A DNA stretch of 64,000 bases from Candidatus Multivoradales bacterium (GTDB lineage Bacteria > Acidobacteriota > Thermoanaerobaculia > Multivoradales > J023): the NCBI GenBank assembly GCA_965248925.1, contig CBDFLE010000005.1:2240001-2304000 (forward strand), written 5' to 3'. The translations under genes and the position numbers were made by a program. A model generated the notes under the pieces. It worked only from the letters and a program-made list of their open reading frames with translations, ran no database searches and was not told the origin of the DNA. Numbering within the stretch: position 1 is the first letter of the stretch; the number at the start of each line of letters is the position of its first letter. Shown here piece after piece: positions 1-59,892 of this stretch.

Positions 1-3000
1 AGTCATGCTCCGAGCCCGGCCAAGCTGCCGTAAGGCGGCATAGGAGTCGGCCCCGAGGTGGCTGTGATACCTCCCTCCGGCCACACTGCGCAGCGCTAGC
101 CGAGCCCGGTCGACGGGCAGCTCTAAACGTTCTGGAGCACCGTCGAGCTGGCCCTTCCAGAAATCGAGCTGGCGCTGCAAGAAGTCGCCGGCCAGCCAGC
201 CCCGCTGCCAGGTCGCGTAGTCGGCATACTGCACCGGTAGGGCGGGCAGGGAGGCCACCGGCTGGCCAAGCGCCTGACGATAGAAGTGCGAGAGTTCGCT
301 GATCATGATCTCGATCGAGCGACCATCGGACACGGTGTGATGCATGCTCAAGACAGCGACATGTTCGCTGGGCGCCAGGCGCAATAGCAGCGCCCGCAGC
401 AGTGGCCCGCGGGCCAGGTCGAAGGGGCGGCGGGCAAAGTCGGCAACTTGGCGCTCGACTTCGCTGGCCGGGCAGCCAGCCAGCTCGACCAGCGGCATAT
501 CCAACAGCGCCGACTGATCGATCTGCTGTCGCGGGCGGCCACCGCTATCGGGAAAAGTGGTGCGCAAGGCTTCGTGGCGGTCCACCAGCCGCCGCAGAGC
601 TTGTCGCAGAGCCGCCACGTCGAGAGGGCCGAGAAGTCGCAAGGCCAGCGGCAGGTTGTAGGTCGAACTGCCCGGATCCAGGCGCTGCAAGAACCACAAG
701 CGCTGCTGGGCGAAAGACAGCGGAATCTGCCGCGGGCGGCGAGCCGCGGTCAGGGGTGGCAGGGAAACTCCGCGCGCCTCGGTGACCAAGAGGCGCAGCT
801 CGGTCGCCAGGTCGGGCAACCTGGGGGTGTCGAAGATCGACCTCAAGGGGACCTCGACCCGCAGCGCCTGGCGCAGCCGCGACACCGCCCGGGTAGCCAG
901 CAGTGAGTTGCCTCCCTGGGCGAAGAAGTCGCTCTCGGCGCCGATCGAGTCGACCCCCAACACCTCGCTCCAGACCTCGACCAGCAGCTCCTCGATCCAA
1001 TCCCAGCGGCCGCGGCTAGATTCCTCCGGCTGTGCCTCCTCAGCCAGCCGCAGCAGGGCGCGGTGATCGATCTTACCGCTGGCCAAACGCGGCATTTCTT
1101 CGACCCCCACCAACAAGCTGGGGACCATGTACTCCGGCAACCACGAGCGCAGGTGGTCCATTAGCTCGCGCCGCTGGGTCGAGGGCAGTGGGCGGGGAAC
1201 GATCCAGGCCACCAGCGGTGCCGCCGCCTGCTGACGGATCGCCACCACGGTTTCCTCGAGCGCGGGAAAGCGCCGCAGAACCGCTTCGATCTCACCGATC
1301 TCAACCCGCGCGCCATGCACCTTGACCTGCTGGTCGAGGCGCCCGAGAATCTCTAACCGCCCCGCCGAAGTGTGTCGCGCCAGGTCTCCGGTGCGGTACA
1401 TCCGCGAACCCGCGGCGCCGAAGGGATCGGGCGCGAAGCGCTCGGCAGTCATGCCCGGCCGCCCCAGATAACCCCTTGCCAAACCGGCGCCAGCGACGTA
1501 CAGCTCACCGCTCGCCCGTGGCGACAGCGGCTCGGCGCGAGAGTTCAGCACGTAGGCGCGGTAGTTACCCACCGGCCGGCCAACGCTCGGCGGGTCACCC
1601 TCCGAGACCTGCTGCCAGGTGCAGTTAATGGTGCACTCCGTAGGCCCGTAGACGTTGTAGAACCGCGACCCAGATCGCCGTGCCGCCAGCTGCCAGAGGT
1701 CTTCATTGAAGGGCTCGCCACCGACCAGCACCAGCTCCGGCCGGCCCTCGCCTTGACCTAGCCCGGCCGCCAGAGCTTGGCGCAAGAGGGTCGGCGTCAA
1801 ATCGAGAACGTCGATCTCATGATCTTCGAGATAGGCCACCAAGGCGGCCGGCTCGGCGCGCACCTCCGCTTTCAGAATATGCACCTGATCGCCCCACGCC
1901 AGCCTCCCGACCCCTTGCCAGGAGGCGTCGAAATAAAGCGGCGCATTGACCGTCACCGCCAACTGCTTGGAGGTTCGCGAATAAACCTCCTGGTCGAGCA
2001 TCTGGTTGAGGTTGAACAGGGCCGCATGGGGAATAACAATCCCCTTCGGCACCCCGGAAGAGCCCGAGGTGAAAATGGCGTAGGCCGCCTGCTGCATGTC
2101 GACCCGCAAATCCAGTGGGCCACTGCCGAGCCCTGCGGCCCGCTCGAGTTCATGTTGCAGATCGTCGACGCCAGCGATTGCCAGTTCGGCCAACCGGGCG
2201 AGGGGCTTGCCAGCGCTGAGGATCCGTCGAGCTCCGATCGATCCGAGCAGGGTGCGCAAGCGCTCGACCGGCTGCCAAGGGTCGAGCGGAACGCAGGTTC
2301 CGCCAGCTTTGAGAATCGCCAGCAGGGCAACGATCTGGCCCACTGAGCGGTCGAGCAACAAGACCACCGGCGCCTCTTCGGCGATGCCCCGCTGGCGCAG
2401 CCGCCGAGCCAGCTGGTTGGACTGCTCGCCGAGCTCGCCATAGGTCAGTTGGTCATCACCGCAGACCAGCGCCGTGGCGGCTGGCGAGCGCTCGGTCGCC
2501 GCCTCGACCCAGCGGTGAAAGGGCCTTGGCCACGCGCTCTGCCGGAGGGTGTCGTTCCAACCCTCGATCACTTGATGGCGGTCACTCGGAGTGAGTATCG
2601 GCAGCTCCTCCAGGCGCCGGTCTAGCCCCCCCGCCATCGCTTCCATCAAGGCACCGAGCTGGCCCACCAGACGCTGCATCACCTCCAGCTCGAGTTCTTC
2701 AGCGGCCAGCAGCAGGCCGATCTCGCGGCCGGGAGCCGCCACCAGGGTCACGCCGTAATGATCGCCGCTCCACATCCGCACTTCGCTGATCTCGAGACTG
2801 AGGTCGACTTCGGCCAGCGACTCTCCCAGCGGGTAGTTTTCAAAGGCCAGCAAGGTATCGAAAAGAGGGTGCTCGGTGGGCAGCCCCAGCGAGCGTTGGA
2901 TCTGCATCAGCGAGCTGCTCTCGAACTGCCGCGCTTCGACCTGGCCGGCCTGCAAGCTCTCCAACCAGTCCGCCAGCGGCGCGTCCCAGTCGATCACCGC

Positions 3001-3912
3001 TCGCACTGGCAAGGTGTTAATGAACATCCCGACCATGGCCTCGGCACCGGCCAACTCAGCCGGCCGTCCGGCGGTCACCGCACCGAAGAGCAGGTCTTCC
3101 CGGCCTCCGTAGTGGGCGAGCAAGATCGCCCAAGCGCCCTGCACCAGGGTGTTGAGGGTCAAACCATGTTGGGCCACCAAGGCGCGCAGCCGGTCGGTGG
3201 TCGTCGCGTCGACCCGGTAGCGGGCCTCCTGCTGTTGGCGTCCCGACGGCGGCGGCGCTACCAGCGGCAGACCCAGGCGGGTCGACGCGACGACCCCGCG
3301 CAAATATCTGTTCCAGAAACTCGACGCCAGGGTCGCATCTTGCTGCAAGTGCCAAGCGATGAAATCCCGAAAGGGCCGCGGCCGCCGGGCTCGCAGCTCA
3401 TCGCCACGGACCTTCGCCTCATAGGCGTCGAAAGCCTCCTGCACCACGATCGACACCGACCAGCCGTCCAGCAGCAAGTGGCTGTGGCTCCAGACGAAGC
3501 GCACTCGGTCCGCCGACAGACGGAAGAGGGCCAGGCGCATCAGGGGGGCCTGGCCGAGTTCGAACCCGGTCTGCCGATCTTGGGTCAGATAGTCGTTCAG
3601 GGCCGCCTCGCGGGCGGCTGGCGGCAAGTGGCGCCAGTCCTCCACCCGCAGCGGCACCTCGAATTTCCGGGTCACCACTTGCACCGGTGTCTCGACCCCT
3701 TCCCAGACGAAAGCGGTACGGAGCACCGGATAGCGCTCGATGATCCACCGCCAAGCGGCCTCGAACTGCTCGATGTCGAGACTGCCCGCCAAAGTGCAGC
3801 CGAGCTGCACGCAGTAGACCCCGCTGCCAGGATCGCGCAAAGTGTGAATCAGGATCCCCTGCTGGGCCGGCGACAGGGGATAGATGTCTTCGATATCTGG
3901 ACGGGCGCTCAT
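1..3912 (-). CDS. NRPS6, 3'-truncated by the window edge: C(DCL)-A13-T-C(LCL)...
   Basis: Not in the ORF track because it has no stop in the window; sampled segments were translated by hand and are all in the frame of the start codon. ATG at 3912, 2 nt after the NRPS5 stop, reads MSARPDIEDIYPLSPAQQGILIH (DCL-type start, consistent with the upstream E domain). C motif WSHSHLLLDGWS; A-domain FDASWQG...NVYGPTECTINC; T motif DFFAQGGNSL (~901-930); next C PLSFAQQRLWF and MHHTVSDG (~320-345). Confidence 0.9.
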   Translation of the reverse strand, partial: MSARPDIEDIYPLSPAQQGILIHTLRDPGSGVYCVQLGCTLAGSLDIEQFEAAWRWIIERYPVLRTAFVWEGVETPVQVVTRKFEVPLRVEDWRHLPPAAREAALNDYLTQDRQTGFELGQAPLMRLALFRLSADRVRFVWSHSHLLLDGWSVSIVVQEAFDAYEAKVRGDELRARRPRPFRDFIAWHLQQDATLASSFWNRYLRGVVASTRLGLPLVAPPPSGRQQQEARYRVDATTTDRLRALVAQHGLTLNTLVQGAWAILLAHYGGREDLLFGAVTAGRPAELAGAEAMVGMFINTLPVRAVIDWDAPLADWLESLQAGQVEARQFESSSLMQIQRSLGLPTEHPLFDTLLAFENYPLGESLAEVDLSLEISEVRMWSGDHYGVTLVAAPGREIGLLLAAEELELEVMQRLVGQLGALMEAMAGGLDRRLEELPILTPSDRHQVIEGWNDTLRQSAWPRPFHRWVEAATERSPAATALVCGDDQLTYGELGEQSNQLARRLRQRGIAEEAPVVLLLDRSVGQIVALLAILKAGGTCVPLDPWQPVERLRTLLGSIGARRILSAGKPLARLAELAIAGVDDLQHELERAAGLGSGPLDLRVDMQQAAYAIFTSGSSGVPKGIVIPHAALFNLNQMLDQEVYSRTSKQLAVTVNAPLYFDASWQGVGRLAWGDQVHILKAEVRAEPAALVAYLEDHEIDVLDLTPTLLRQALAAGLGQGEGRPELVLVGGEPFNEDLWQLAARRSGSRFYNVYGPTECTINCTWQQVSEGDPPSVGRPVGNYRAYVLNSRAEPLSPRASGELYVAGAGLARGYLGRPGMTAERFAPDPFGAAGSRMYRTGDLARHTSAGRLEILGRLDQQVKVHGARVEIGEIEAVLRRFPALEETVVAIRQQAAAPLVAWIVPRPLPSTQRRELMDHLRSWLPEYMVPSLLVGVEEMPRLASGKIDHRALLRLAEEAQPEESSRGRWDWIEELLVEVWSEVLGVDSIGAESDFFAQGGNSLLATRAVSRLRQALRVEVPLRSIFDTPRLPDLATELRLLVTEARGVSLPPLTAARRPRQIPLSFAQQRLWFLQRLDPGSSTYNLPLALRLLGPLDVAALRQALRRLVDRHEALRTTFPDSGGRPRQQIDQSALLDMPLVELAGCPASEVERQVADFARRPFDLARGPLLRALLLRLAPSEHVAVLSMHHTVSDGRSIEIMISELSHFYRQALGQPVASLPALPVQYADYATWQRGWLAGDFLQRQLDFWKGQLDGAPERLELPVDRARLALRSVAGGRYHSHLGADSYAALRQLGRARSMT

Positions 3913-3914
3913 CG

Positions 3915-6900
3915 TCACTCCCCGACCTTGCCGAAGCGTCCGAGAACATTCTCGAGCTGCCCGGCGTCGAGCTTGGCGAGTGGAAAGTCCGCTGGCGTAG
4001 GTTCAGGCCGCTCGGCCTCGCTGGCGACATCGATGAGCTTGCCGAGCTGCTTCAAGAAGCCGCCCGCGACCCGTTCCAGGGCGCCGTGATCTCCGCTTTC
4101 ACCGGCCAGGTTCCAGCTCACCGTCAGGCGACCATCGGCAACCTTGGCGGTGATCTCCAGACTGTGCGAGGGCTTCTGTAGCGGGCTCCGCTGGGGACCG
4201 GTGCTCTCGGCAGCCTGAACGAAGGAAGACTCGGCTTCGAGCACCCGATCGAGCTGCCCCAAGTAGTTGAAGAGGACCTCGGAGGGTGCTATCGCGGCGA
4301 TCCCGTGGCCGCTCTCGTCGGTCCGCAGATAGCGCAGCAGGCCGAAGCTCAAACCCCGGCGCGGCACGGATCGCAACCGCTCTCTGACCTGGCGCAAGAT
4401 CGCCATCGGTTGCCGGCAGCGACGAAGATCGAAGCTCACCGGATAGATGGTGGTGAACCAGCCGACCGTACGGGTGACGTCGATATCGTCGCCGACGTCC
4501 TCCCGGCCATGCCCCTCAAGGTCGAGTTGCACGATCCGCGAACCCATCCAGGTGGCCAAGGCTTCCAGGATCGCCGCCAGCAAGATCTCCTGGGTCTGCA
4601 CCGCCAGATCTTCCGGTAGCCCGTGCAACAGAACCTCGGTCTGCTCCGGATCGAGGCTCACCGTGGTGCTCTGGCCGGCCTCGCTATGGGTCGAAGCGCG
4701 ATGGATCCGCGGCAGCCGGCCGGCCTGACTCTGGCCCCGGCTGAGCCAAAAATCGCCATCCCCGACCAAAGCCTCCGACCCGGCGAGGGCGGTCAGCCGC
4801 TCGGCCCAGGCTTGGTAGGAAGACGAACGCGGCGGCAACCGCGCTGGCTGGCCGGCAGCGAGCTGCTGGTAGACCCGCTGCAAGTCAGCCAGCAAGATTC
4901 GCCAAGAGATACCGTCGACCGCCAGGTGATGGATGATCAGCAGCAGGCGCGAGGAACGCTCGGCGCCCAGATCGAGCCAGATCACCCGCGCTAGCGGCCC
5001 GGCACCGAGGTTCAGAGCGCGTTGGGCGCGGTCGGCGGCCGCGCTCAGCAGCTCGGCAGGAGGGTGCTGCTCGTCGACCACCGCCGACAGGTCGAGCACC
5101 GAGAACGGCGCCGCTTCCCCAGGCGGCAGGTTGTGCGCTTGCCAACCGGCGTCCTGGCGGACGAAGCGCAGCCGCAATCCGTCGTGGTGTTCGACCAGAG
5201 TATCGAACACCCGCCGCAGAATCTTCGGATCGAGGCGCTCCCGCACCTCCAACATCAGCGCTTGGTTGAAATGATCGACCTCGACCAGCTGCTGGTCGAA
5301 GAACCAATGCTGGATCGGGGTCAGCTGCACTGGCCCGCTGACCGGCCCGCGATCGGCGATCGGCGGCCCTAGACTCTCCGCAACTCGGGCCAACTCGGCG
5401 ATGTTCTGATGCAGGAAAATATGCCGGGGGGCGATCTTGAGCCCCGCCTCGTTGACCTTGGCGACGATCTGGATCGATTGGATCGAGTCGCCTCCGAGGA
5501 CAAAGAAATTGTCTTCGACACCGATCTTCTCGAGCCCCAAGACCTCCTCCCAGATGGACGTCAGCAGGTGTTCGACCGGGGTCTCGGGAGCCAGGTAGGA
5601 AGTTTCGGCGGCCAGCCTTTCCTCGGTCTTCGGCCGCGGCAGCGCTCGCCGGTCGAGCTTGCCGTTGCTGGTCAAGGGCAGCCGCTCGAGAACGACGAAT
5701 TCGGCCGGTACCATGTACGACGGCAAGCGTTCGCCGAGACCCTGCCGCAGCTCCTCGAGACGCAGCTCTTGGTCCGCCGCGGCGACCAAGTAGGCGACCA
5801 GCCGAGCGTCCGCCGAACCCGCCTCGCGCAGCGCCATCACCGCCGCCGCCGCCACTTGCGGCTGCTCGCGCAGTAGCGCTTCGATCTCTCCTGGCTCGAT
5901 GCGGAAGCCCCGCACCTTCACCTGCTGATCGATCCGTCCCAAGTACTCGAGATCGCCATCGGCAAGCCAACGCGCCAGATCACCAGAGCGGTAGAGCCGG
6001 GCGCCGGAGCCGCCACCGAGAGCATCTGGCACGAAGCGGCTGGCGGTCAGCGCGCCACGGCCCAGGTAGCCTAGCGCCACTCCAGCGCCACCCACCACCA
6101 GCTCACCGCCAACCCCCTGGGGTACCGGGTGGCCGCGGCGATCGAGTAAGAAGATCCGTAGATCCGCCAGCGGCCGTCCGACATTGCTGCCGAACCCGGC
6201 GCTGATCTCAGCGGCGCTGATCCGGTGAAAGGTCGAGTGGACGGTGGTTTCGGTGATGCCGTACATGTTGATCAACCGCGGCGAGCTGTCGCCATGGCGA
6301 TCCAGCCACCCCCTGAGGGTCGAGGGGTCGAGGGCCTCGCCGGCAAAAACGACGTAGCGCAGGGTGTGCTGGACGGCTCGGTCGAGGGTCGACTCCGCCG
6401 AGATCAGCTGCCGGAACGCCGACGGCGTCTGGCTCAGCACGGTCACCCCCTCGGTCTGCAGCAGCTCGAGAAAACGATCCGGTGATCGGCTCACCCAATA
6501 GGGCACAACGACCAGACGGCCACCGTGCAGCAGTGCCCCCCAGATCTCCCACACCGACACATCGAAAGCGTAGGAGTGGAACAAGGTCCAGACATCCTCA
6601 GCAGCGAAACCGAAGTGCTGTTGGCTGGAGCGCAGCAGGCGGAGCACCTGATCATGGGCCACCACCACCCCTTTCGGCACACCGGTTGATCCGGAGGTGT
6701 AGATCACATAGGCGGCATGCCCCGGATCGCCCGTCACCCAGGCGGGCACGGTGGGCGGATTCGGCCCGGTCGCGGCGTCGATCTCGATCACCTGGCCAGC
6801 CAAAGGCGGCAGGCGATCGCGCAGCGAAGAAGAGGTCAGCAATAGGGAGCAAGCGCTGTCTTCGGCGAGGAAGCGCAGCCGTTCCGCTGGCACCTCGGGA

Positions 6901-20042: not shown

Positions 20043-20048
20043 CTTGGG

Positions 20049-30282: not shown

Positions 30283-30307
30283 CTTCTTCCTCGACTGACC
30301 GCCGACA

Positions 30308-53200: not shown

Positions 53201-55770
53201 AGGATCCCCAGCGACCAGAAATCGCCGATCAGGTGATGGAGTGCCAGAACCAGGACAAAGCGGTCCGGCGATTGCCGCAGCAAGCACAGCCGGATCAGCG
53301 GCCCGCCATCCAGCTCAAAGGGACCCCAGGCCCGCCGCAGGAGTTCGCGCCGCAATCGTGAATCGTCCCAACTGGCAGCGTCGATCTCGAGAAAATCGGC
53401 GGCGGTTCCTTCGACCACTCGCTGGAACGGCTTGCCTCGCTGATCACCGAATACGCAACGCAGCGCCTCGTGCCTGCCGACCAGAGCGCTGAAAGCCTGT
53501 CCCAGAACCGCGCCGTCGATCGCGCCGATCCCTGCCGCGGCATGGGATATCAGGTAAGCGCGGTTTCCGGGCTGCAGCTTCTCCAAGAACCACAACGCCT
53601 CCTGACCGTGGGTCAGGTCGAACGGCACGCCGACGGCAAATTCTTCGCATCCCTCCCGGGCCAGGGCGCTCTCGAGAATCGCAGTCGGCGCCGGTTCGGG
53701 CGCCGTCAAGCCGGCAAGAACCTGCTCACACAGTTGGTCGACGGAACCCTCGCCAAGCAGTAGATGGAGCGGAACCGCGACCCCAAATCGCGCTTCGAGC
53801 TGGTTGCTGAGTTCCACCGCTCGCAACGAGTCCAGGCCCCAGGCGACCAAGGGGCCTGCCGCCGGCAGCTGGCTCGTCGGCACTGCCAGCACTCGGCCGA
53901 CCAGAGCGCGAACCACGTTCGCTAGCCGAGTCAGGCGTTCTCCGGCGTGGAGAGCTAACAGCTCGGCTCGATCCAGCATATCCACCAAGGGTTCTGGATC
54001 CGAGGCGCTCGCCGCAGCCGCGACGAGCAGCGGAAGCTCGCCGGCCAGGTAGGCATCCCGGACGGCGGATCGCCGCAGCTTGCCGCTCGAGGTGCGCGGC
54101 ATCTTGCCGGCGCCGATCAGTACTACTTCCTCGACTGAGACCTCCTGCTGCTCGGCGATCGCTGCCCGAATCGCCGCCGTGACCTCGTCGTGCGCAGCCT
54201 TGCTCCGCCGATCGATCTCACAGACAATCACCGCCCCTTCGCGATCCTGATAGTGCACCGAGAACGCCGCCGAACCATTCGGCCGCACCGCCGGATGGCC
54301 GTTCTCCGCCGCCTGTTCGAGATCCTGCGGATAGAGGTTGCGACCGCGGATAATCAGTAGATCCTTGATCCGACCGCTGACGAAGAGCTCCCCAGCGACC
54401 AGAAAACCGAGGTCGCCGGACTTAAGAAACGGCCCACGATCGGGCTCATCGGTGAGCACCGCGCCGAAGATGGCCAGGGTCGACTCCGGCTGATTCCAAT
54501 AGCCCGAGGCGACACTGGTGCCGCTGATCCAGATCTCGCCGACCCGGCCCGGCGGCTGCTCCCGACAGCTCTCTGGGTCGACGATCAGCACCTCTTGCCC
54601 ATGCACCGCCGATCCACAGCCGACGAGGTGAGAAGCCCCTGCCGCGGCATCGCTGACGGTTCTCGCCCGGCCCTCGTGCTCATAGGTCTGGCGGTCTAGA
54701 GCCTCGACCACCGGAACCCCATCGGTAGAGGCAGTCACCAAGAGGGTGGATTCAGCAAGACCGTAGCAAGGGCAGAAAGCGGAACGCCTGAAGCCCCACG
54801 GCAAAAACATCTCGGCAAAACGCTCCAAGGTCTGTGCACGAACCGGCTCCGCACCGTTGAAAGCGGTCTGCCAGGTCGACAGATCAAGGCCCTGAACCTG
54901 CTCCTCGGTCATCCGCTTGACGCAAAGCTCGTAAGCGAAGCTCGGCCCGCCACTGGTGGTGGCGCCATACTTCGAGATCGCCTGCAGCCAATTCGCCGGC
55001 CGCTGCAAGAACGATATCGGCGACAGCAAGATGCAGTGGGCGCCGACAAACAGAGGCTGCAACATCCCGCCGATCAACCCCATGTCGTGGTAGAGCGGCA
55101 ACCAGCTGACAATCACCGAGTTGTGGTCCTGGCGGAAGACGCGGCGAATCGCCTCTTCGTTGTGCGACAGGTTGGCGTGGGTCACCATCACACCCTTGGG
55201 CAGGGAGGTCGATCCGGAGGTGTATTGCAAGAACGCCAGCGTCTCGGGTAGCGGCTCAAGCGGCGACCAATCGCTAGCCGGCGGCTCGCCCAAGTCGTCG
55301 ATCTCCAACCAGCGGCAGCTGGAGAAGGCCGGAATCACCGCCGCCAACTTGGCCAGACGGCGCCGCAGCTTGCGGGTCGTCAGAATCAACGTGGGATCGG
55401 CATCGGCACAGATCGCTTCGAGAGTCCGTGGTCGCCGGCCAAGGCGCGGAGGGTAGGCGGGCACCGCGACGACACCGGCGCTCAGACAGCCCAAGAAAGC
55501 GTGCAAGAACTCAAGACTCGGGGGGAAGAGCAGCACGGCGCGCTCGCCAGGAGCAGCGAGCTTGGAGATCGCAGCACCTGCCGCCAGCACACCTTGCTCC
55601 AGCTGCCGGTAGGTTTGCTCGGCCGCCACTAACTTGCCGTCGCGCAAGAAGGTGAAGGCGGTCCTGTCACCATGCTCCGCGGCTTGCTGCCGCAGTAGCT
55701 CGATGACGCTCTTTCCAAGGACGTGGGTGTTCATCTCCAAAGCGCTGCCGGTGCGTAGCCCGGAGGCCAC
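38260..55770 (-). CDS. NRPS1 (5836 aa): FAAL-ACP-C-A1-T-C-A2(Ser)-T-E-C-A3(Gln)-T-C-A4(Gly; monooxygenase insert)-T
   Basis: FAAL motifs AFLQYTSGST, WLPLYHDMGLIG, CYGLAE, GRNLYPQDLE; ACP GLDSL. Codes DVGDTGIVNK, DVWHISLVDK (Ser), DAWQFGLIDK (Gln), DILQLGMIWK (Gly). E domain after a GGDS T, followed by a DCL C (HHLLLDG). The start may instead be ATG 55734. Confidence 0.95.
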   Translation of the reverse strand: MASGLRTGSALEMNTHVLGKSVIELLRQQAAEHGDRTAFTFLRDGKLVAAEQTYRQLEQGVLAAGAAISKLAAPGERAVLLFPPSLEFLHAFLGCLSAGVVAVPAYPPRLGRRPRTLEAICADADPTLILTTRKLRRRLAKLAAVIPAFSSCRWLEIDDLGEPPASDWSPLEPLPETLAFLQYTSGSTSLPKGVMVTHANLSHNEEAIRRVFRQDHNSVIVSWLPLYHDMGLIGGMLQPLFVGAHCILLSPISFLQRPANWLQAISKYGATTSGGPSFAYELCVKRMTEEQVQGLDLSTWQTAFNGAEPVRAQTLERFAEMFLPWGFRRSAFCPCYGLAESTLLVTASTDGVPVVEALDRQTYEHEGRARTVSDAAAGASHLVGCGSAVHGQEVLIVDPESCREQPPGRVGEIWISGTSVASGYWNQPESTLAIFGAVLTDEPDRGPFLKSGDLGFLVAGELFVSGRIKDLLIIRGRNLYPQDLEQAAENGHPAVRPNGSAAFSVHYQDREGAVIVCEIDRRSKAAHDEVTAAIRAAIAEQQEVSVEEVVLIGAGKMPRTSSGKLRRSAVRDAYLAGELPLLVAAAASASDPEPLVDMLDRAELLALHAGERLTRLANVVRALVGRVLAVPTSQLPAAGPLVAWGLDSLRAVELSNQLEARFGVAVPLHLLLGEGSVDQLCEQVLAGLTAPEPAPTAILESALAREGCEEFAVGVPFDLTHGQEALWFLEKLQPGNRAYLISHAAAGIGAIDGAVLGQAFSALVGRHEALRCVFGDQRGKPFQRVVEGTAADFLEIDAASWDDSRLRRELLRRAWGPFELDGGPLIRLCLLRQSPDRFVLVLALHHLIGDFWSLGILLRELEALYLAVVGSRTVAGAAVDSPLPAGWFAACVRQQRELLQTDQGKVLRRFWRQQLGGHGFDLRLPADRPRPSAQTFRGETVASWLGERQAAALEALGWAHSATLYVTLLASFQVLLCRLTGSSEPLIGSPTSGREAGQGSGLAGLVGYFVNPVVLRTELGPGMDFSELLGRTRATVLAALEHAALPFALLAQDLQPQRDASRSPIFQAMFAFQQEAPGVGQGLAEFSLAASGSQIEFAGFELKAVDLEGCSAQFDLCFSVAPVGDRLRLELEFSTDLFDRSSAQRFLGAWLQVVEEVLAKPRAVLSALSLLTASQRQQLLVEWNDTQVSYAATGLVPQLLAAQASRDPQALAIDDGQRQLTYGQLLQASAAQARRLIALGAGSETCVGLLADRSAAMVVGALAILKTGAAYLPLDPKLPPRRLAWMVEDLGVELVLSDGSAGGRLAECGAQVVNLDEPMPASTHGVGNSVRIPRQSLAYVIYTSGSSGRPKPVGVSHASLQHLVHWYQRTFQIQPGDRAAQLAGPAFDVAVGELWCHLAAGASLHLPADEIRLAPGELRRWLVEERIQISDVSTPMMERLCDFEWPSEGMLRALTTGGDRLRLPGALPWNIPTYNIYGPTECTVNATAGRVGRDLAAGVQPPIGRPLSNTRVFLVDGALQAALPGAIGELCLSGVGLARGYLGRPGLTAGSFVANPFSVHPGERLYRTGDLARYRGDGQLEFLGRFDQQVKLRGFRIELGEIEAACAALPEVSEAVVVLLEDPRGAGRLAAYLVPRQPLPSFAELRQRLAKTLPEYMLPAAWVELPRLPLTRSGKIDRAALPVPRWQVGRSAEFASVTEQRLGRIWGEVLGRGEVGRNDDFFALGGHSLLGTQVSSRIAEEFGVELPLRALFEAPELYRLAEVIEQAQVAAGPTRLPLTPIEGSGPWPLSFPQQRLWFLSHLPGCGAAYNMPSLLRLAAGVLERRLLDAALTEIARRQTLLRTCFVEHHGKAAQQVMGLTAHCTPRVDLDHLGAADRQVELAALARSFASRRFDLRRGPLLRTLWLDLGAEGVGLAVCLHHIIADGWSIDLLLSELAATYGDLAAGHRPSLGRPAINYQDFAGWQRRWFEDGVYESQIRYWRQQLAGSGSGVELAGDRPRPATFDFAGGRVERHLTKIDLRALEHFGQAHGGSLFMTVLAAFQVLLFRLTGEQDQRLGTAVANRNRLESERLLGVFVNTQVMRLEVEGSESFLDLLRLSRRSVLEADAHQDVPFELLVQSLDLSRDRSRNPLFQIMLLLEEPPALLRLGETEVAVEELVTPQSKFDLSVGLRRQPGGDLLWAEYSTALYDSTTVLRWLEQLQSLLVGILDAPRQPVASLPILDRAQRQQLLVEWADSAVAYASADQTLTELIQRNTARGPDIIAVVADSGVLSFAELWRRAGWLADHLGERGVGPESVVGVLAERSLELLIGLVGILRAGAAYLPLDPDYPAERLLFMIEDSGASLVVAQSDLAGALPSAAVPVLRLDEDLDQPVVRSATAEPGGQYRRALPENLAYVIYTSGSTGRPKGVMNQHRGVVNRLLWTQSRFALIPGDRILQKTPTSFDVSVWELFWPLLCGATVVMARPGGHRDSAYLVSALIEQRITTIHFVPSLLRVFLLAAGVEKTQGILRQVICSGEALTADLVRRADRRLKAPLHNLYGPTEAAVDVTARRCGAADHQGMVPIGRPIDNVRIRLLDRRARPVPVGVAGELCIGGVALARGYRQRPALTARTFVPDPLAQQPPAQRLYRSGDLARYRADGSIEYLGRLDHQVKLRGFRIELGEIEAALENYPRVAAAAAAVGATKAGESRLDAYVVGLREGIAELREHLGQCLPGHMIPATFTFLGQLPLNASGKLDRQALPAPDSRGSEFESAYVAAGTAAEKCLSRLWAAALGVERVGIHDDFFALGGDSILSLQVVAQAAAEGLRLGAQDVFQAPTIAELARLGSFESELTEGEMAAAAPMRGEVPLSPIQQWFFEQQPAEPWHFNQALLLATPTALDPARLAVAARLMLRRHDALRLRFEDRGGRWRQHCSAPDSTLPWTRIDLSHLRQGHRSVARDRLVRRAQASLNLSIGPVVRWLLLDHGEQPGRLLWIAHHLVVDGVSWRLLVLDLERTYGQLEAGSQPSPLPPTTSYQTWVEHLMATAGAEARVAEVDYWRHASRPSRPLPVDIDGGRGTVGEAEVVRVQLPVESTQTLLEQAPRAYRTDVQEILLTALAETLTAWSGDRAVKIDLEGHGRQFDGLAKLDVARTVGWFTSLFPLRLELGEVSAGGAHLKQVKEQLRAVPDQGRGWGMLRYLSDGEDVVDKGSAEVLFNYLGQLDGVIGSTDMLKLIAEEQPAERSRRQQRSHLLEISVKVREGRLLVDWEFSRGAHRRQTIGSLANDFIGRLGAWIDHCSKPANRGFTPSDFPLADLDQPALDELRTTVGEIEDLLPLTPTQEGMLFHALAAPASDLYTEQMSCELLGELDSKVLLEAWGQIASRHPMLRALLLWQGLERPLVAVLPEHQASAEVLDWSALPAVEQDSRVAALMVAERQRGFDLSRRPAWRLAMIELGAGRQRLIWSFHHLLLDGWSVALVIRELFELYDALIEGRPAGLSAAPSPSGHLRWLQGRQAAPSLAYWRRRLSGFDAPTPLGIDRPASLTEASSRVAEQRLVLPARLAAALDDLVRRHRLTLNTLFESAWARLLSLYSGHQEVVFGTVAAGRQASVEDSERMVGVFINTLPARLEVPSSATLIGWLRRVQAGQSEARSHQHTPLAEIQQLCGLAADQPLFESLLVFENYPLVGLMEQRQAAPRVGRLLFFERTNYPLVLSAARTSELAFTAAYDPARFDPTTIGRLLDHLTTLLRNLVAGEVVAPSQWGILSRAERHQLLWDWNDTAVSYGADSLLGPLLARRADCGGLQAVAQGAVSWSYAELWSRVDQLSGSLRSRGMVAETRVGLSSVRSPEMVAGLLAILSGGGTVVPLDPDYPAARLSYLIEDSGTSLLLVDSAWTTRPQTAGLSGDLPVIELSQAVAGRRQRAATAVSVTAEQLAYLIYTSGSTGRPKGVMVSHRAIANRVLWMQSEYPLEAEDRVLQKTPLSFDASMWELLTPLLAGASVELARDGGHRDMAYLRQLIEARGVSVLQLVPSQLQVWLEEVGAASCGSLRWVFSGGEALPEALRGRFESLLDAELINLYGPTETAIDASHHRCRRGQAGAGQIVPIGRPLGNLRLSVLDAGLEPLPAAAAGELYVAGPSLARGYQGRAALTAEHFVPDPWSPRAGGRLYRTGDRTRRLADGRLEYLGRADQQVKVRGVRIEPGEIEARLAEHPAIEGAAVVARGAGADKALVAYVVGRSQAALDTRQLRQDLAHELPPSLVPSTFVVLGELPRLTSGKVDRRALASREVAVNTTDGLRTLPRNLTEEMVAAIWMEVLGLDRIHVEDDFFTLGGHSLHATRAISRLQTTLAVEIPLLKLFELPTLGALSAYVEVARGRGGDSLPAPIERLPRSAELPASFAQRRLWFIDQLDPESPLYNLPLRLRMGGVLDIGALREAFSDLVARQEVLRSTFEPADGAPRLRLHGPVPVALPVIDLVGLRAASAESEAARLAAADAARGFDLRRGPLLRTALLRLAERDYSLLLNVHHIVGDGWSTGLLLRELATHYGARRRGCSAQLAELPVQYVDYAAWQQDWLQGQALTDELEFWRSRLAGAPALLNLPTDRPRPAVQSNSGASLPVQLDASRTAALESLGRQHRGTLFMVLLAAWSTLLARYSGSADLSIGVPVAGRTRLETEPLVGCFVNTLVFRLQGLAEQTFLGLIGQVREVTLATSAHQDLPFEKLVEELEPERSLSFSPLFQVMLALQNVPAEGVEFDRLEVRLEDVETRVSRYDLSLFLAPDGDRLQGFLEYSDELFDNTTIARLWGHLETLLAGLSGAALGADLAQLPLLSAAERRQLLGEWNDTASELPVAEMAAVERPGKLPLSRQFESRVARQRWRVALTFADQQITYGELEARANRLAHYLISLGAGPESLVGIHLRRTPQMVVAMLAVLKAGAAYLPLDPSYPPRRLAYLLDDAAVTLLIADAGELGDLEDPRRVVVDPERDQWLIDGQRSDPPSLDESLQRLAYVIYTSGSTGRPKGVMVDHASVANFFVGMDRQVGRDQPGTWLAVTSISFDISVLELLWPLTRGYRVVLQPAAPSRAAWSGSTERTIGREIDFSLFYFASDLGEQEHDRYRLLLEGARIADRLGFAAVWTPERHFHHFGGLYPNPSVVGAAIAAITERVQIRAGSVVLPLHNPVRVAEEWSVVDNISGGRVGISIASGWVANDFVLAPDSFQDRHAVMFRNLETIRRLWRGEKVTMTDGVGAEAEISILPPPVQPELPIWVTAAGSPETFRRGGELGAHLLTHMLGQDIDQLAANIQIYRQARQEAGHEPQSGKVSVMLHAFVADDLEVAKETVRQPFYSYLRGSAGLVKNLAVSLGWDLQDTELSAADMEAMLEFSFERYFATSGLMGTRQSCFDMVARLSQIGVDEVACLIDFGIAEDQVLAGLSRLAEVQSEVRRATLLGGQPEIGIGEQIRRHRVTHFQCTPSMATMLALDPEVRQELAEVDCLLLGGEALPPSLAESLAGGGEIHNMYGPTETTIWSSTWRLERGGGSVPIGRPIANTELHVVGGGLELQPVGIPGLLFIAGQGVVRGYLARPALTADCFVPNPFSSRAGRRMYATGDLARRRRDGVLEFLGRVDQQVKVRGHRIELGEIESHLDRHPGVAEAVVVTHESATADLQLVAYWVAAAEAQLADAGHLRNHLRSELPEHMVPTLFVDLEQLPRTPNGKLDRAALPAPRLAETTGERLRVAPRSALEEALVGIWSELLGRDDLDIHDDFFELGGHSLLAARLIFQLRSAFKIDLPLRQLFEATTIAQLASALEDHERRPGMLAKRAELLLRIQQMSPDELADKLAQRRRGKV
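39490..40525 (-). other. Luciferase-like flavin monooxygenase domain inserted between the A4 and A5 motifs of the Gly A domain
   Basis: FSLFYFASD...YRLLLEGARIADRLGFAAVWTPERHFHHFGGLYPNPSV...IRAGSVVLPLHNPVRVAEEWSVVDNISGGRV...GVDEVACLIDFG interrupts the A domain between FDISVLE and THFQCTPS. Confidence 0.9.
43113..44513. repeat. ~1.4 kb near-identical copy 2 of the Gln A-domain core (copy 1 at ~13292-14692)
   Basis: Direct DNA match to 13292-14692, ending at the LVAYV codons. Confidence 0.9.
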
Positions 55771-56074
55771 GGCATGGTCGAACCGTTTCAGCTAGTGGTA
55801 GGTAGCCGGACCAGGCGCCGGGGGCTCTCCGCGAGGCCAGCGGAGAAATCTCGACGAATATGCCAACTACCCCTCTATAACGCAAAGAACTCTGGCAAAA
55901 AGAACAACTCAACTTAGACTAGTCTGCACACTCTAACGTCAATCAGCAGCGTACCGCCGCAATCAGAAACACCTCTGCAAGAGCGTGATTTCTTTCCATG
56001 ACCATGGACGCCCTTCGAGGTTTGGCGAGCTGCGAACGGTACGGGATAATGGCCGCCGTGAAGGAATCAAAACT
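55771..56074. promoter_or_regulatory. Divergent promoter region between the NRPS operon and the peptidase/carbamoyltransferase operon
   Basis: Non-coding, visibly AT-richer gap between head-to-head genes. It contains the palindrome AGACTAGTCT (55916-55925) and a stem-loop TCTCCGC-N7-GCGGAGA (55826-55846). Promoter boxes were not assigned. Confidence 0.55.
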
Positions 56075-58432
56075 GTGAAGGAATCGAAGATTGGCATCGC
56101 CCTGACCATTCTCGCGGTAGTCGGTTGTTTGATAAGCGCCCGTTCGCTAACCCCGCCACCGGTTCGTGCAGTTTCAGAAAGCATTGACCTATTCTCTGCC
56201 CACCGCGCCATGCGGCATCTCGATCGCTTGGCTATCGACCCTCGTGCCACTGGCTCCGAAGGGAACGAGCGGGCACGCCGGTACATCACCGAGCAGATCG
56301 AGTCAATGGGTTTGGCTGTCGAACTCCAGAACGGACTTTCAATTGATCGAAACTCCTGGCTCGACGTCGCCAATGTGACCAACGTCTTGACCAGAATCGA
56401 AGGTAGCGATTCCCAAGCCGGGTGCCTTTTGATCGCCGCACACTACGACACTGTTCCGACCAGCCCAGGAGCCGCCGACAACGGCTCCGCGGTAGCGTCG
56501 GCGCTCGAAGTGGTACGAATTCTCACTCTGGGACCTAAACCTCGTAACGATTTGATATTCCTTTTCAGTGACGGCGAAGAACCTGGCCTGCGTGGCGCGC
56601 ATATTTTCATGTCACAGCACCGCTGGGCCAAGGAAATTGACTTTGCTATCAATTTTGAGGCAAGAGGCACTAACGGTCCGACCTTGATGTTCGAGAGTAG
56701 TCCGAAAAACTCTCGCCTGGCCGCTTTGCTAGCGCAATCCAGCGCCCATCCAATAGCATTCTCATACGCGCCCGAGGTCTACAAGAGACTTGGCAACGAC
56801 ACCGATTTTTCCGTTTTTAGATCATTCGGTATCGAGGGCCTAAATTTCGCCTACATCGGCGGCGCTGACAAGTATCACACCTCCCGCGACGACCCGAGTG
56901 AGCTTGATCCCCGGAGCCTTCAGCATCAAGGTGATCTACTCCTGAGCTTGAGTAGAGATCTGGGCAACCAAGACCTCTCTGACTTACAATCTGCCGCCGA
57001 TGCGACGTTCTTCACACTGCCCCTTCTCGGACTTGTCGTCTATACCAACTCCATCGGCTGGATCATGGCTCTGCTTGCGGTTTCACTGTTGCTGGGCAAG
57101 CTCGCGAGGGGGCTCCTCAGCCACACGATCAAGTTACTGAAAGTGCTTGCCGCGTCCGGTCTCTTGTTGATTTGTGTAGCGCTCTGCGGAGTGGCCGCGG
57201 ACTTTTTGGCTCGCGCCCTAGGCCGCGATTTCAACCTCAGCCATGGTTGGTCGACAACCTCGCTCTATCTGATCGCCTTGACCCTGGCCGTGTTCGCCCT
57301 GGCTGTTCTTTTCTATCGCTTGTGCGAGGGTAAATTCGGCGATGAGCTTCCACTTGGCGGTCTCTTGCTGATAGCAGTCTTGGTGATTCTCATCGGCCGG
57401 TTGGCCCCGGGCGCCAGCTACCTTTTCGCTATTCCTCTCTTGCTGGCCTCGATCACCGAGTTCTTTCGTAGCTCCTCCAGGAGGCAGGGAAATCCCCCGG
57501 TTGGGGAAATTCTACTGCTAGCGGCAACTCTGATCGCCGTGGTGCTGATCTGGACACCGACGTTGGTACTGACGCGAGAAGCGCTGGGGAACAACGCCAC
57601 CCCGATCATCGCTGGCGTGGTCTTTTTACTACTCTCGTGTCTGTTGGCTCCGCACCTGCTCCTGCTGGTTCGGGGTTGGCGCCAAGGGATGCCCACGGTC
57701 ATCGCGACCTTGCCGGTAGTCCTGCTCCTGGTGGGCATCGCCTACGCCGGCTCCGGTATCGACAGCGACGATCCAAAAGCCAACAGCGTCTTCTATGTCC
57801 GCGATGCAGACCTGGATTCGCAGCACTGGATGACTTTTGATCATCAGCTGGACTCATGGACGGAGCAGTTCTTCGAAGTTCGCCCAGAGTCCACCCCAGC
57901 ACCAGCGTTCTTGGGATTCACCAGCCAGATCCTGGCCGGCAGCGCTCCAGCCGTCGATCTGGGCCACGGCGTGGCAGAGATCTTCAGCGTCGAGCCAACC
58001 GCCACCGGCCGCCGGATCGAGCTCCGGCTACGCTGGCCATTTCGCGTTCATCGCGCATTGCTCTACTTCGATCTCGGCGACCGGGGCGTGGTCGAAGCGG
58101 TCGGCGGCCACCCTTTCGATCCAGCCGACGACGACGAGAATCCGCTCTTCGGCCAGAGAATGGCCTTTTACGGCCCGCCTGTGGAAGGCATCGAGCTGGC
58201 CCTTCACCTGAGCGGCGACCAGCCGCTGAAGCTCACCCTAGTCGCCCAACGCTACGCCCTGCCCAACCTCGCCGATTTCTCCTATTCCCCTCGCCCCGCC
58301 GAGACTCGGCCCAGACAGAGCTGGGTCACTGATTCGACATTTATCAAGAACACGATCCTGGTTGAACCCGCGACTGCACCCAACGCAGGTCGAGTCGACC
58401 GAGTACTTCTGGTCGGTCAGCCGCCGTTGTGA
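56075..58432 (+). CDS. Membrane-anchored M28-family zinc metallopeptidase (ERMP1/vacuolar membrane protease-like architecture)
   Basis: N-terminal TM/signal; AAHYDT, GAADNGSA, DGEEPGL, NFEARG, DTDF and YHTSRD motifs; then many hydrophobic helices and a soluble C-terminal domain. GTG 56075 follows an AAGGA RBS (ORF track start 55985). Confidence 0.88.
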   Translation: MKESKIGIALTILAVVGCLISARSLTPPPVRAVSESIDLFSAHRAMRHLDRLAIDPRATGSEGNERARRYITEQIESMGLAVELQNGLSIDRNSWLDVANVTNVLTRIEGSDSQAGCLLIAAHYDTVPTSPGAADNGSAVASALEVVRILTLGPKPRNDLIFLFSDGEEPGLRGAHIFMSQHRWAKEIDFAINFEARGTNGPTLMFESSPKNSRLAALLAQSSAHPIAFSYAPEVYKRLGNDTDFSVFRSFGIEGLNFAYIGGADKYHTSRDDPSELDPRSLQHQGDLLLSLSRDLGNQDLSDLQSAADATFFTLPLLGLVVYTNSIGWIMALLAVSLLLGKLARGLLSHTIKLLKVLAASGLLLICVALCGVAADFLARALGRDFNLSHGWSTTSLYLIALTLAVFALAVLFYRLCEGKFGDELPLGGLLLIAVLVILIGRLAPGASYLFAIPLLLASITEFFRSSSRRQGNPPVGEILLLAATLIAVVLIWTPTLVLTREALGNNATPIIAGVVFLLLSCLLAPHLLLLVRGWRQGMPTVIATLPVVLLLVGIAYAGSGIDSDDPKANSVFYVRDADLDSQHWMTFDHQLDSWTEQFFEVRPESTPAPAFLGFTSQILAGSAPAVDLGHGVAEIFSVEPTATGRRIELRLRWPFRVHRALLYFDLGDRGVVEAVGGHPFDPADDDENPLFGQRMAFYGPPVEGIELALHLSGDQPLKLTLVAQRYALPNLADFSYSPRPAETRPRQSWVTDSTFIKNTILVEPATAPNAGRVDRVLLVGQPPL

Positions 58433-58448
58433 AACCGAGAGGAATGCA

Positions 58449-59381
58449 ATGCCTGTGAAGCACCTTCTGAGCCTTGGAGATCTGAGCCCTGACGTAGTCC
58501 TCCACCTAGTGGACCGCGCGGTGGCTTTCTCCGCCTCCAAGCAACCTTCAAAGGTCCTGAAGGACAAGATCGTCGGCATCTACTTCAGCAAATCTTCGAC
58601 CCGCACCAGGACCTCATTCGCCGTCGGAGCGATGAAGCTCGGTGCCGATACGATCATTTACGGTGCTGGCGACTTGCAGCTCTGCACAGGCGAAACCCTC
58701 ACCGACACCTCGCGAGTTTTGTCGGGCTACCTCGATGGACTGGTGGTCAGGACCAACGGTCCGCAGGCCGAAATGGCGGCGCTCTGCCATGACCAGATGG
58801 CGGTCATCAACGCCATGAGCCAAGAGGAACACCCGACTCAAGCGATCGGTGACTTGGGTACTTTGAAAGAGTGCTTTGGCCACCTCGATGGGCTGCGGGT
58901 GCTCTACCTCGGCGACGGCAACAACACCACCACCGCACTGGCCCGGGCCTGCTCGATAGTTCCTGGGATGGAGTTCCACATCGTCACCCCGGAAGGTCAC
59001 GGCATCGACCCCAGCCTGCTGGCGCATTGTCACCACCGCGCCACCGCGAACGGCGGCAAGATCTCGCAGCAACACTCGATCAACGCGCTGCCCTCGGAAG
59101 TCGACGCGGTCTACACCACGCGCTGGCAGACGATGGGCGAAGGTAAGCCCGGCGACGACGGCTGGAAGGAGAAATTCCAACCCTATCGGGTCGACCAGGA
59201 GCTCATGGGGCGGGTTTCCAAAGCAGACGGGTCGACCATTTTCATGCATGACCTACCGGCCGTTCGCGGCGAGGACGTCACCGACGCGGTGCTTGACAGC
59301 AAGGCCAGCTGGGCCTGGCGGCAAGCCAACTTCAAGCTCTACAGCGCGATGGCCGTATTGGAGTGGTGCTTCGCCGGTTGA
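58449..59381 (+). CDS. Ornithine carbamoyltransferase-fold enzyme, probably a secondary-metabolism (diamino acid) carbamoyltransferase
   Basis: Carbamoyl-phosphate motifs SSTRTRTSF and HPTQ are present. Acceptor-side motifs are altered: YTTRWQTMG (canonical YTDxWxSMG) and MHDLPA (canonical HCLP). ATG 58449 follows GAGAGGA. Confidence 0.85.
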   Translation: MPVKHLLSLGDLSPDVVLHLVDRAVAFSASKQPSKVLKDKIVGIYFSKSSTRTRTSFAVGAMKLGADTIIYGAGDLQLCTGETLTDTSRVLSGYLDGLVVRTNGPQAEMAALCHDQMAVINAMSQEEHPTQAIGDLGTLKECFGHLDGLRVLYLGDGNNTTTALARACSIVPGMEFHIVTPEGHGIDPSLLAHCHHRATANGGKISQQHSINALPSEVDAVYTTRWQTMGEGKPGDDGWKEKFQPYRVDQELMGRVSKADGSTIFMHDLPAVRGEDVTDAVLDSKASWAWRQANFKLYSAMAVLEWCFAG

Positions 59382-59892
59382 TCGGGCTGCCGAATTTGCG
59401 GCCCGTTGGAAGACTGGGGAGATAATTCTCTAGCTGCGTGGCAAGCGGACCCTAACTAGGCGACAATCCCGTCGAAGGTGTAGGGTTTTACCGGAGAAGG
59501 CAGAAAAAGGGGCACAGGGAGAGAACAACACCTTGCCGCTCACGATCTTCGCCACGAGGTTCTGGCATGGCGATGAAATGGGGCGGCAACTCCGAAAATT
59601 CGGAGTAGGAGAGCATCGGTGGGGAGCGTGAAGATGCCCGTCCGACCTGGACCTTCGGCCGGGTGCAGCCTCGATACTTACAGGCCATTTGGCCAACTTC
59701 TGGCTCGCGATCCGCATTCCGAGGGAACGCGGCTGGTTGTGCTTGCGCTCGAGACAGGCCACCAGGCTCGCGCCCCTGTTCGCTACCTTGCCCTCTTGGG
59801 CGACCACCACCGCCGCAACCTGATCGACCCCGATCAGCTGCCAATGCAAACTTATCAGCCTACCCCAGGCTCCAAGGTTCCAAGGTGACGTG

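Follow-up and report, generated by a model that had tools for sequence, protein, structure and literature searches.

A 27-module, FAAL-primed nonribosomal peptide synthetase line from an Acidobacteriota lineage and its predicted lipopeptide

Genes and domains at the locus

The stretch analyzed here, the window, is 64 kb of an Acidobacteriota genome (G000:C5:2240001-2304000; G000 is the source genome, 7.98 Mb, 6 contigs, 96.9% complete) and contains one end of a nonribosomal peptide synthetase (NRPS) cluster. Five NRPS genes and one gene for a TauD-type hydroxylase are on the minus strand of the window, and a sixth NRPS gene crosses its left edge; the line extends 46.6 kb to the left of the window, that is, to a total of 27 adenylation-thiolation (A-T) modules and a thioesterase (TE) in seven NRPS genes (N1-N7). 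The cluster is real, intact, and unusually long, double the size first noted. A preliminary description of the window counted at least 13 modules: 13 are complete in the window (4+2+1+1+4+1 over N1-N6), so the count holds there and understates the extent of the line. The elements it listed are all present, that is, a fatty acyl-AMP ligase and acyl carrier protein (FAAL-ACP), two epimerization (E) domains, one dehydrating condensation (C) domain, two interface domains, an embedded monooxygenase, three different methyltransferases (MTs), a TauD, the peptidase (here assigned to the M28 family), and the carbamoyltransferase (a gene of the ornithine transcarbamylase (OTCase) fold).

Domains were called with profiles built from the cluster's own domains, NCBIfam and Pfam profile cut-offs, and a C-domain tree. 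A-domain codes were extracted by alignment at the GrsA anchor positions and compared with the code tables of PMC12283262; the extraction also returned the ZmaB Ala and ZmaJ-type Ser codes as published. Relatives were surveyed in 300 genomes of the order (counts include the source genome; no second genome of the source genus was found among the genomes searched), and sets of 6, 36, 48 (of 72 metagenome loci, those of at least 6 kb), and 11 loci were annotated. Papers are cited by PMC number (for context, PMC12426817, PMC13083261, PMC12971057, PMC8252469, and PMC3547906).

The features are listed below; positions are those of the window unless preceded by C5, and DCL and LCL denote C domains for D- and L-configured donors.

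38260-55770, minus: NRPS N1 (5836-aa open reading frame, ORF), FAAL-ACP-Cstart-A1(Arg-like)-T-C-A2(Ser)-T-E-DCL-A3(Gln)-T-C-A4(Gly, monooxygenase)-T
54079-55713, minus: FAAL (NCBIfam FAAL matches), with the ACP downstream at about 53731-53955
45910-47223, minus: E domain of module 2 (D-Ser), with a GGDSI T domain before it and a DCL-type C domain after it
39466-40518, minus: FMN luciferase-like monooxygenase inside the Gly A domain, between A4 and A5
30308-38263, minus: NRPS N2 (2651 aa), C5-A5(Thr)-T-C(dehydrating)-A6(Gly)-T-C7, with a C-terminal RRRAV tail
36794-38122, minus: C domain of module 5, HHLIGEASS in place of HHxxxDGWS, first His codon near 37726
33551-34861, minus: dehydrating-type C domain (Thr5 to dehydrobutyrine, Dhb), motif NHAIFDG
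29191-30282, minus: TauD1, iron/2-oxoglutarate (Fe/2OG) hydroxylase with HxE...H and an N-terminal RRRV tail, probable Gln7 β-hydroxylase
23411-29194, minus: NRPS N3 (1927 aa), interface-A7(Gln, type I N-methyltransferase)-T-C8
27878-29170, minus: interface domain of N3, lacking HHxxxDG
25265-26422, minus: type I N-methyltransferase in A7
20049-23429, minus: NRPS N4 (ATG at 23414), A8(DARHLALMTK, Asp/aminoadipate type)-T-C9
3915-20042, minus: NRPS N5 (5375 aa), interface-A9(Glu, type II O-methyltransferase)-T-C-A10(Gln, type III MT)-T-C-A11(diaminopropionate (Dap)-like)-T-C-A12(Thr-clade)-T-E
18747-20018, minus: interface domain of N5, lacking HHxxxDG
16533-17300, minus: type II (FkbM/KtzH-like) O-methyltransferase of the Glu module
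12243-13238, minus: type III MT of the protein arginine methyltransferase (PRMT) fold in the Gln module, motif SEI changed to SNL
3993-5330, minus: E domain at the end of N5
1-3918 (C5:2226531-2243918), minus: NRPS N6 (5795 aa), module 13 in the window and 14-17 beyond it
C5:2193433-2226534: NRPS N7 (11,033 aa), modules 18-27 and TE
Left of N7, to C5:2183053: TauD3, TauD2, PvdE-type exporter, and second M28 peptidase
55985-58432, plus: membrane M28 metallopeptidase, metal motifs intact
58449-59381, plus: Dap/diaminobutyrate (Dab)-type transcarbamylase, OTCase fold, TRWQTMG and HDLP

The NRPS genes cover 102 kb, and the whole cluster measures 116 kb from end to end. N1 has 4 modules, N2 has 2, N3 and N4 have 1 each, N5 has 4, N6 has 5, and N7 has 10 and the TE; to the left of the window are 14 modules, the third E domain, the second dehydrating C domain, the TE (motif GWSMGG), two TauDs, the exporter, and the second M28 peptidase. 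The C-domain tree separates 1 starter C, 3 E, 3 DCL, 2 dehydrating, 2 interface, and 21 LCL domains. N2, N3, and N4 terminate in C domains, N3 and N5 start with interface domains, and N4 starts with an A domain. As expected for a FAAL-initiated lipopeptide NRPS, the FAAL-ACP is followed by a starter C domain, C-A-T modules, and a terminal TE.

Several features of this architecture count in favor of a single assembly line: the seven same-strand NRPS genes encode a total of ~33,700 aa without an internal stop or frameshift, their junctions overlap or measure 6-25 nt, all three E domains have a GGDSI T domain before them and a DCL-clade C domain after them, and a Thr-coded module precedes each of the two dehydrating C domains. 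T domains ahead of E and dehydrating C domains read GGDSI in 5/5 cases, and the T-domain Ser is intact in 27/27 modules. Third-position GC content (GC3) is 0.78-0.81 across all NRPS genes, and both N2 and N7 have a docking-like helix at the N-terminus.

Modules 26 and 27 form a 3.2-kb tandem duplication (99.97% identical; L002:1536-7956). An assembly artifact is unlikely: in 4/4 runs, all of one sample, read depth on the contig of the collapsed repeat exceeds that on the TE-side flank by a factor of ~1.4-2.6. The last module was thus duplicated recently. Separately, A3 and A10 (window 43113-44513 and 13292-14692) share a 1.4-kb block with 91% DNA identity, which points to a recent exchange between the two Gln modules by recombination or conversion.

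Predicted residues and product

Most of the A-domain codes are identical to published codes, which also counts for a single line: Ser (modules 2, 15, 19), Gln (3, 7, 10, 16), Gly (4, 6, 25), Thr/Dhb (5, 14, 18), Glu (9), Asp (21), and Val (23). Near matches are found for modules 1 and 26/27 (Arg or Lys, 7/10), module 8 (aminoadipate/Asp, 7/10 to Zmn16), module 11 (Dap, 8/10 to SulI DVWEMNADDK; nearer Dap than Dab), module 12 (Thr clade, 8/10), modules 20 and 24 (Ile/Val, 9/10), and module 22 (Ala, 9/10). Module 17 is read as Ala/Gly and has RKID in place of GKxD; module 13 is Gln/Glu-like but uncertain, and comparison with the first-module code of ZmaB (DAQDIAAVD) is not decisive. Arg-239 codes like that of module 8 may mark activation of the side-chain carboxyl (as in microcystin McyB/McyE); a PDB search found no close structure for A8.

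From these codes and the domain order, the predicted residues 1-14 are acyl-Arg-D-Ser-Gln-(OH)Gly-Dhb-Gly-NMe(βOH)Gln-Asp/aminoadipate-(βOMe)Glu-(Me)Gln-Dap/ureidoAla-D-Thr*-Glx-D-Thr, and the predicted residues 15-27 are Ser-Gln-Ala/Gly-Dhb-Ser?-Ile-Asp-Ala-Val-Ile-Gly-Arg/Lys-Arg/Lys. The backbone given for modules 1-13 in the preliminary description agrees with the extracted codes and the published tables except at module 11, where Dap replaces its Dab-like residue. The unmodified core has a computed mass of 2839 Da, or about 2.97 kDa with the predicted tailoring, acyl chain excluded; the acylated, exported product is predicted to be about 3.1-3.3 kDa. The computed masses of its modified residues are 73.016 (hydroxy-Gly), 83.037 (Dhb), 158.069 (N-Me-hydroxy-Gln), 159.053 (methoxy-Glu), 142.074 (Me-Gln), and 129.054 (ureidoalanine).

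Tailoring domains and enzymes

With 519 bits, the monooxygenase exceeds the TIGR04020 cut-off of 244, and the code of its host A domain, DILQLGMIWK, is identical to the code of the monooxygenase-bearing Gly (MOX-Gly) modules MtaG and MelG. Insertion between A4 and A5 is described for the myxothiazol and melithiazol modules, which cleave the chain; in solanimycin the insert is at A8-A9 and hydroxy-Gly is retained (PMC10204066). The retention of hydroxy-Gly in solanimycin B is a precedent that counts for a single line. Two features mark an MtaG-type cleaving module, the A4-A5 site in a Gly domain and a terminal position before a TE; the first is found here, and the second is not (module 4 of 27). 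In 20 loci from relatives, monooxygenase-Gly modules are followed by further modules without an O-methyltransferase in 7/20 and with one in 8/20. In those eight (L069, L073, L075, L078, L082, L083, L086, L087), the monooxygenase and a type II O-methyltransferase occupy one Gly A domain; because the methyltransferase follows the monooxygenase in the same domain, capture of hydroxy-Gly rather than cleavage is indicated, a further point for a single line; the cassette predicts α-methoxyglycine, a term not found in the papers returned by a full-text search.

Each of the three embedded methyltransferases matches one of the motif sets of PMC8341866 (types I, II, and III), which again counts for a single line. 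The type I N-methyltransferase has all six mb(a8-a9) motifs (GWQSSY, VLEIGCGTG, YVGIDFS, NSVVQYFPS, DEELVVAPAFF, NELNRFRY), and the type II O-methyltransferase also has its six (EIFANRCY, VFDIGANIGMFTL, EPLP, FTFYPRYTMMSG, IDLLKIDV, WDKVQQVVMEVH), in a host A domain coded for Glu (DAKDLGVVDK) instead of Ser/Thr. The type III domain is PRMT-like and has motifs i, iii, and iv (VVLDVGTGHEA, VFAEIGYPFDLR, WLPVFIP); in motif ii the expected SEI is SNL (Glu to Asn), and the host is coded for Gln instead of Tyr. Among the 150 best library matches (112 with a readable A code), Asn occurs at this Glu in 3/150 (query included), all Gln-coded, and a Gln code occurs in 0/104 coded rows that retain Glu; in G224, too, a homologue with a Gln code shows the Glu-to-Asn change. 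These Asn/Gln domains are kin, so they represent one event. We infer that the type III domain methylates the side-chain amide of Gln. Across the type III set (P0121-P0270), many domains are in A domains with Arg-like or other non-Tyr codes.

TauD1-3 all have HxE...H and basic N-terminal tails. The arrangement expected for interface-directed β-hydroxylation is found: N-terminal C-like domains without HHxxxDG, an upstream protein that ends in a C domain, and a TauD. The preliminary description placed one TauD with the two interface domains; that TauD is in the window, and the cluster has three. In 36/48 metagenome loci a TauD is immediately upstream of an interface-A gene; in a FastTree tree of 92 TauD sequences, TauD2 and TauD3 cluster with TauDs that adjoin interface-A(Glu) modules (support 1.0 and 0.98); and G012 has a tandem TauD pair ahead of an interface-A(Glu) module. 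These three observations count for a single line. The TauD1 clade, which has weak local support, contains Gln-module and transcarbamylase-linked TauDs. The tree suggests the Gln module as the target of TauD1 and the Glu module as that of TauD2 and TauD3.

The adjacent carbamoyltransferase, recognized in the preliminary description, is identified here as a Dap/Dab-type enzyme: in it HDLP replaces HCLP and (T/S)RWQ replaces DxxxSMG, the marks of Dap and Dab transcarbamylases (DPTCase/DBTCase; PMC4581275), and it scores below the TIGR00658 OTCase cut-off. Housekeeping ArgF was considered and rejected; a canonical ArgF is encoded at C6:880095. TRWQTMG is intermediate between TRWQTTG (DPTCase) and TRWQSMG (DBTCase). 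Its top plasmid matches (51%) are in a Bacillus zwittermicin-type cluster with zmaJ, between a phosphopantetheinyl transferase gene and sbnA/sbnB. SbnA and SbnB are over cut-off about 0.9 Mb from the cluster and no Dab aminotransferase is over cut-off in the genome, so Dap and ureidoalanine are favored. Among the 16 transcarbamylase loci read (L088-L103), an SbnB-like gene is nearby in 6, a TauD in 4, and a PvdE-type exporter in 5; a Tengunoibacter locus (53% identity) has no A domain within 21 kb.

The exporter is over the TIGR01194 (cyclic-peptide exporter) cut-off. The two M28 peptidases, one at each end of the cluster, are 36% identical, and either may trim the product. Among 20 M28 loci from other genomes, the peptidase is fused to a PvdE exporter in 2/20 and is downstream of a TE in a third, which also counts for a single line; most have no NRPS match in their 1.5-kb flanks, and four viewed at 17-20 kb have none. 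Exporter-M28 fusions beside NRPS clusters are those at L192/L209 (G014) and L204/L207 (G004).

Proposed pathway and alternatives

We favor, with moderate confidence, one collinear, FAAL-primed 27-module NRPS that makes an exported lipopeptide; its domains, order, motifs, and codes are observed, and its substrates, tailoring sites, cyclization, and activity are proposals. The FAAL would load a fatty acid, and the starter C domain would acylate the Arg-like residue 1. Residues 2, 12, and 14 would be epimerized, and Thr5 and Thr18 dehydrated to Dhb. The flavin monooxygenase would α-hydroxylate Gly4, with the residue kept in the chain; TauD1, on the N3 interface domain, would provide β-hydroxy-Gln7, which would also be N-methylated; the distal TauD pair, on the N5 interface domain, would provide a hydroxy-Glu9 that is then O-methylated; and the type III domain would place a methyl on the side chain of Gln10. 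The transcarbamylase may convert Dap (from the distant SbnA/SbnB) to β-ureidoalanine for module 11 or 13. Module 19 would be loaded in trans or skipped. The TE would free the peptide, and the PvdE-type ABC exporter would secrete it, perhaps with M28 trimming. An antimicrobial activity is a default guess only.

Some observations weigh against this pathway. The monooxygenase is at the A4-A5 site in a domain with the exact MtaG/MelG code, and module 4 lacks an O-methyltransferase. C5 reads HHLIGEASS, whereas the motif Asp is kept by each of the cluster's 20 remaining LCL domains and by 7/7 C domains of relatives directly after monooxygenase modules. The codes of modules 1, 8, 11, 12, 13, 17, 26, and 27 are inexact (about 6-8 of 10), and TauD1 is placed in its clade with support of 0.15. 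A19 (G000:C5, about 2220300-2221750) has lost core motifs, those for ATP binding included (TAGLAG for TSGxTG, YGPTS for YGPTE), and looks dead, with its T domain intact.

The alternative that survives best, although we consider it unlikely, is a line with two products: oxidation of Gly4 would break the chain and free acyl-Arg-D-Ser-Gln-NH2, and a separate peptide of ~23 residues would follow, either because the altered C5 passes a glyoxylyl group from T4 to Thr5 or because N2 starts afresh. Such a split would be in the manner of zwittermicin ZmaL/ZmaC or of MtaG. The MtaG-type insertion site and identical code speak for it, the monooxygenase module ends protein N1 with no stabilizing O-methyltransferase, and the C5 motif is unique, although the rest of that domain deviates no more than its siblings do (at 10 of 94 conserved columns, against a range of 0-14). 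In the stored proteins the motif count is 473 DG, 58 DA, and 2 E variants, both of the latter outside C domains, and variation in HHxxxDG is described as accompanying altered chemistry (PMC10510592). For C5, a neutral change or an assembly error is also conceivable. Against the split, internal monooxygenase-Gly modules occur commonly in the order, C5 retains its catalytic second His, N2 has the same docking-like helix as N7, and the embedded monooxygenase has no BLAST match to a Bacillus ZmaL-like protein at E 1e-5. The stronger form, a deliberate split after residue 3 in which a specialized HHxxxEA C domain hands on the glyoxylyl group to give two products of this make-up, is more doubtful still; if true, one cluster would produce a short lipopeptide amide together with a glyoxylyl peptide of ~23 residues that contains side-chain N5-methyl-Gln (made by a new, Gln-specific subtype of embedded PRMT-fold methyltransferase), methoxy-Glu, a side-chain-linked acidic residue, and ureidoalanine.

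A decaying or stalled cluster, in which the C5 and A19 changes would be lesions and full product scarce or absent, is improbable: the A19 and C5 changes and RKID in module 17 are the kind of damage expected, but the reading frames, GC3, and T-domain serines described above are undisturbed, the exporter, hydroxylases, and carbamoyltransferase are intact, and the last module is a recent duplicate.

We give little weight to the idea that the product is a compound already described, for example, a sponge lipopeptide, whose cluster is either unlinked or in MIBiG. Ureidoalanine is found in the sponge lipodiscamides, and N-methyl-Gln, β-methoxy, and Dhb residues occur in sponge peptides. The best homologues, from metagenome-assembled genomes (MAGs), are only 42-64% identical, no collinear locus is among those annotated (at most 64% identity; MIBiG was outside the scope), and a table of about 320 known nonribosomal peptides contains none of 'Ser-Gln-Gly', 'OH-Gln', and 'Me-Gln'. 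Aciculitin was considered as a product and rejected because the cluster has no aromatic code.

An amphiphilic β-hydroxy-acid siderophore is least credible of all: siderophore clusters of that kind typically have a FAAL start, interface/TauD pairs, and a PvdE-type exporter, and the module 21 code is also used for β-OH-Asp, but no receptor is in the cluster (the nearest of 17 TonB-receptor matches is about 149 kb away), a methyl group is predicted on the Glu9 β-hydroxyl, the flanking genes scanned include none for hydroxamate or catechol formation, and 27 residues far exceeds the usual siderophore size.

Relatives, surroundings, and significance

Returning to the single 27-module line, the tailoring cassettes recur in the order: of the 300 genomes, 80 have the monooxygenase domain, 45 the transcarbamylase, 20 the M28 peptidase, and 18 the type III MT, and interface-A(Glu)-O-methyltransferase occurs in 3/48 loci. 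The best identities are 59-64% for TauD1, 51% for N4, 59% for the type III MT, and 64% over full length for the monooxygenase; the best NRPS homologues are from Acidobacteriota MAGs, which, together with the 15 ADOP permeases over cut-off in the genome, suggests that phylum as the source. The search for a sister cluster used TauD1 (41 relatives, and metagenomes as well), N4, N3 (dominated by multi-module proteins and little informative), the type III MT, transcarbamylase, monooxygenase, and M28 peptidase, and it found distant matches only. No compound of the predicted sequence was found in the open full-text literature (subscription papers and MIBiG were outside its scope), and no paper there matched six A-code strings. 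The cluster likely has no known product; the earlier statement that no product is recognized thus agrees with a search that did not extend to MIBiG.

Every part is of a known type and the logic is not new; the features that stand out are the type III MT on a Gln module (Glu to Asn) and the HHxxxEA motif of C5 after a monooxygenase module. The lineage is rich in clusters with few linked compounds (PMC13083261), and it has yielded here a lipopeptide line of great length, complete and on one contig, whose predicted product gives a concrete ladder to seek by tandem mass spectrometry. Three questions of enzymology can be asked without the organism: the action of a type III MT on Gln, the fate of hydroxy-Gly (cleavage or retention) in an MtaG-type module that is internal, and the division of three TauDs between two interface domains.

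An ADOP permease gene (L001:15373-17817, plus; one of 15 ADOP copies over cut-off in the genome) separates N7 from the distal TauD pair and is read from the opposite strand. To the right, a 227-aa ORF (window 59430-60113, minus) has no Pfam or NCBIfam match and is probably spurious; outside the cluster, a 5979-aa CARDB-repeat protein starts at window 60306-64000 (plus) and continues to the right, followed by two related giant ORFs, with an N-terminus common to all. A promoter/terminator scan gave a result at chance level. Three other large clusters are in the genome: a FAAL-primed NRPS with interface domains and TauDs (C6:5111570-5183467), a single 19,437-aa NRPS ORF (C6:338812-397122), and a hybrid whose last part is a six-module NRPS (C5:1513358-1567423).

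Comparison with known systems

The cluster shares with other FAAL/interface/TauD lipopeptide lines the FAAL-ACP-Cstart beginning, the layout of terminal C domain, TauD, and interface-A, and the PvdE-type exporter. Lines of the cupriachelin/serobactin type are reportedly FAAL-initiated with interface domains and TauDs; this one differs in its 27 modules, in Gln and Glu interface modules that are paired with N- and O-methyltransferases, and in having no TonB receptor nearby. Kutzneride KtzO/KtzP are two Fe/2OG enzymes ascribed to a single Glu module, as proposed for the distal TauD pair; the likeness is by description, and the pair here is linked both with an interface domain and with an O-methyltransferase embedded in the module. 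Turnercyclamycin is a further named comparator (PMC12971057). With the DPTCase/DBTCase enzymes of zwittermicin, viomycin, and padanamide (PMC4581275), the transcarbamylase shares HDLP and TRWQ; it differs in its intermediate TRWQTMG and in that sbnAB are ~0.9 Mb away.

The MOX-Gly modules MtaG, MelG, CtaG, and FtaE likewise have a flavin monooxygenase in a Gly A domain, and MtaG shares both the A4-A5 site and DILQLGMIWK; those modules are terminal before a TE, whereas the one described here is internal (4/27) and the next C domain has HHxxxEA. Solanimycin SolF is internal, as here, but its monooxygenase is inserted at A8-A9. The interrupted A domains of TioS, KtzH, and ThxA2/DidJ (PMC8341866) have all three methyltransferase motif sets and the A8-A9 site in common with the cluster; the substrates described there are Ser/Thr for type II and Tyr for type III, whereas the host domains here are Glu- and Gln-coded, and the type III domain has Asn for Glu.

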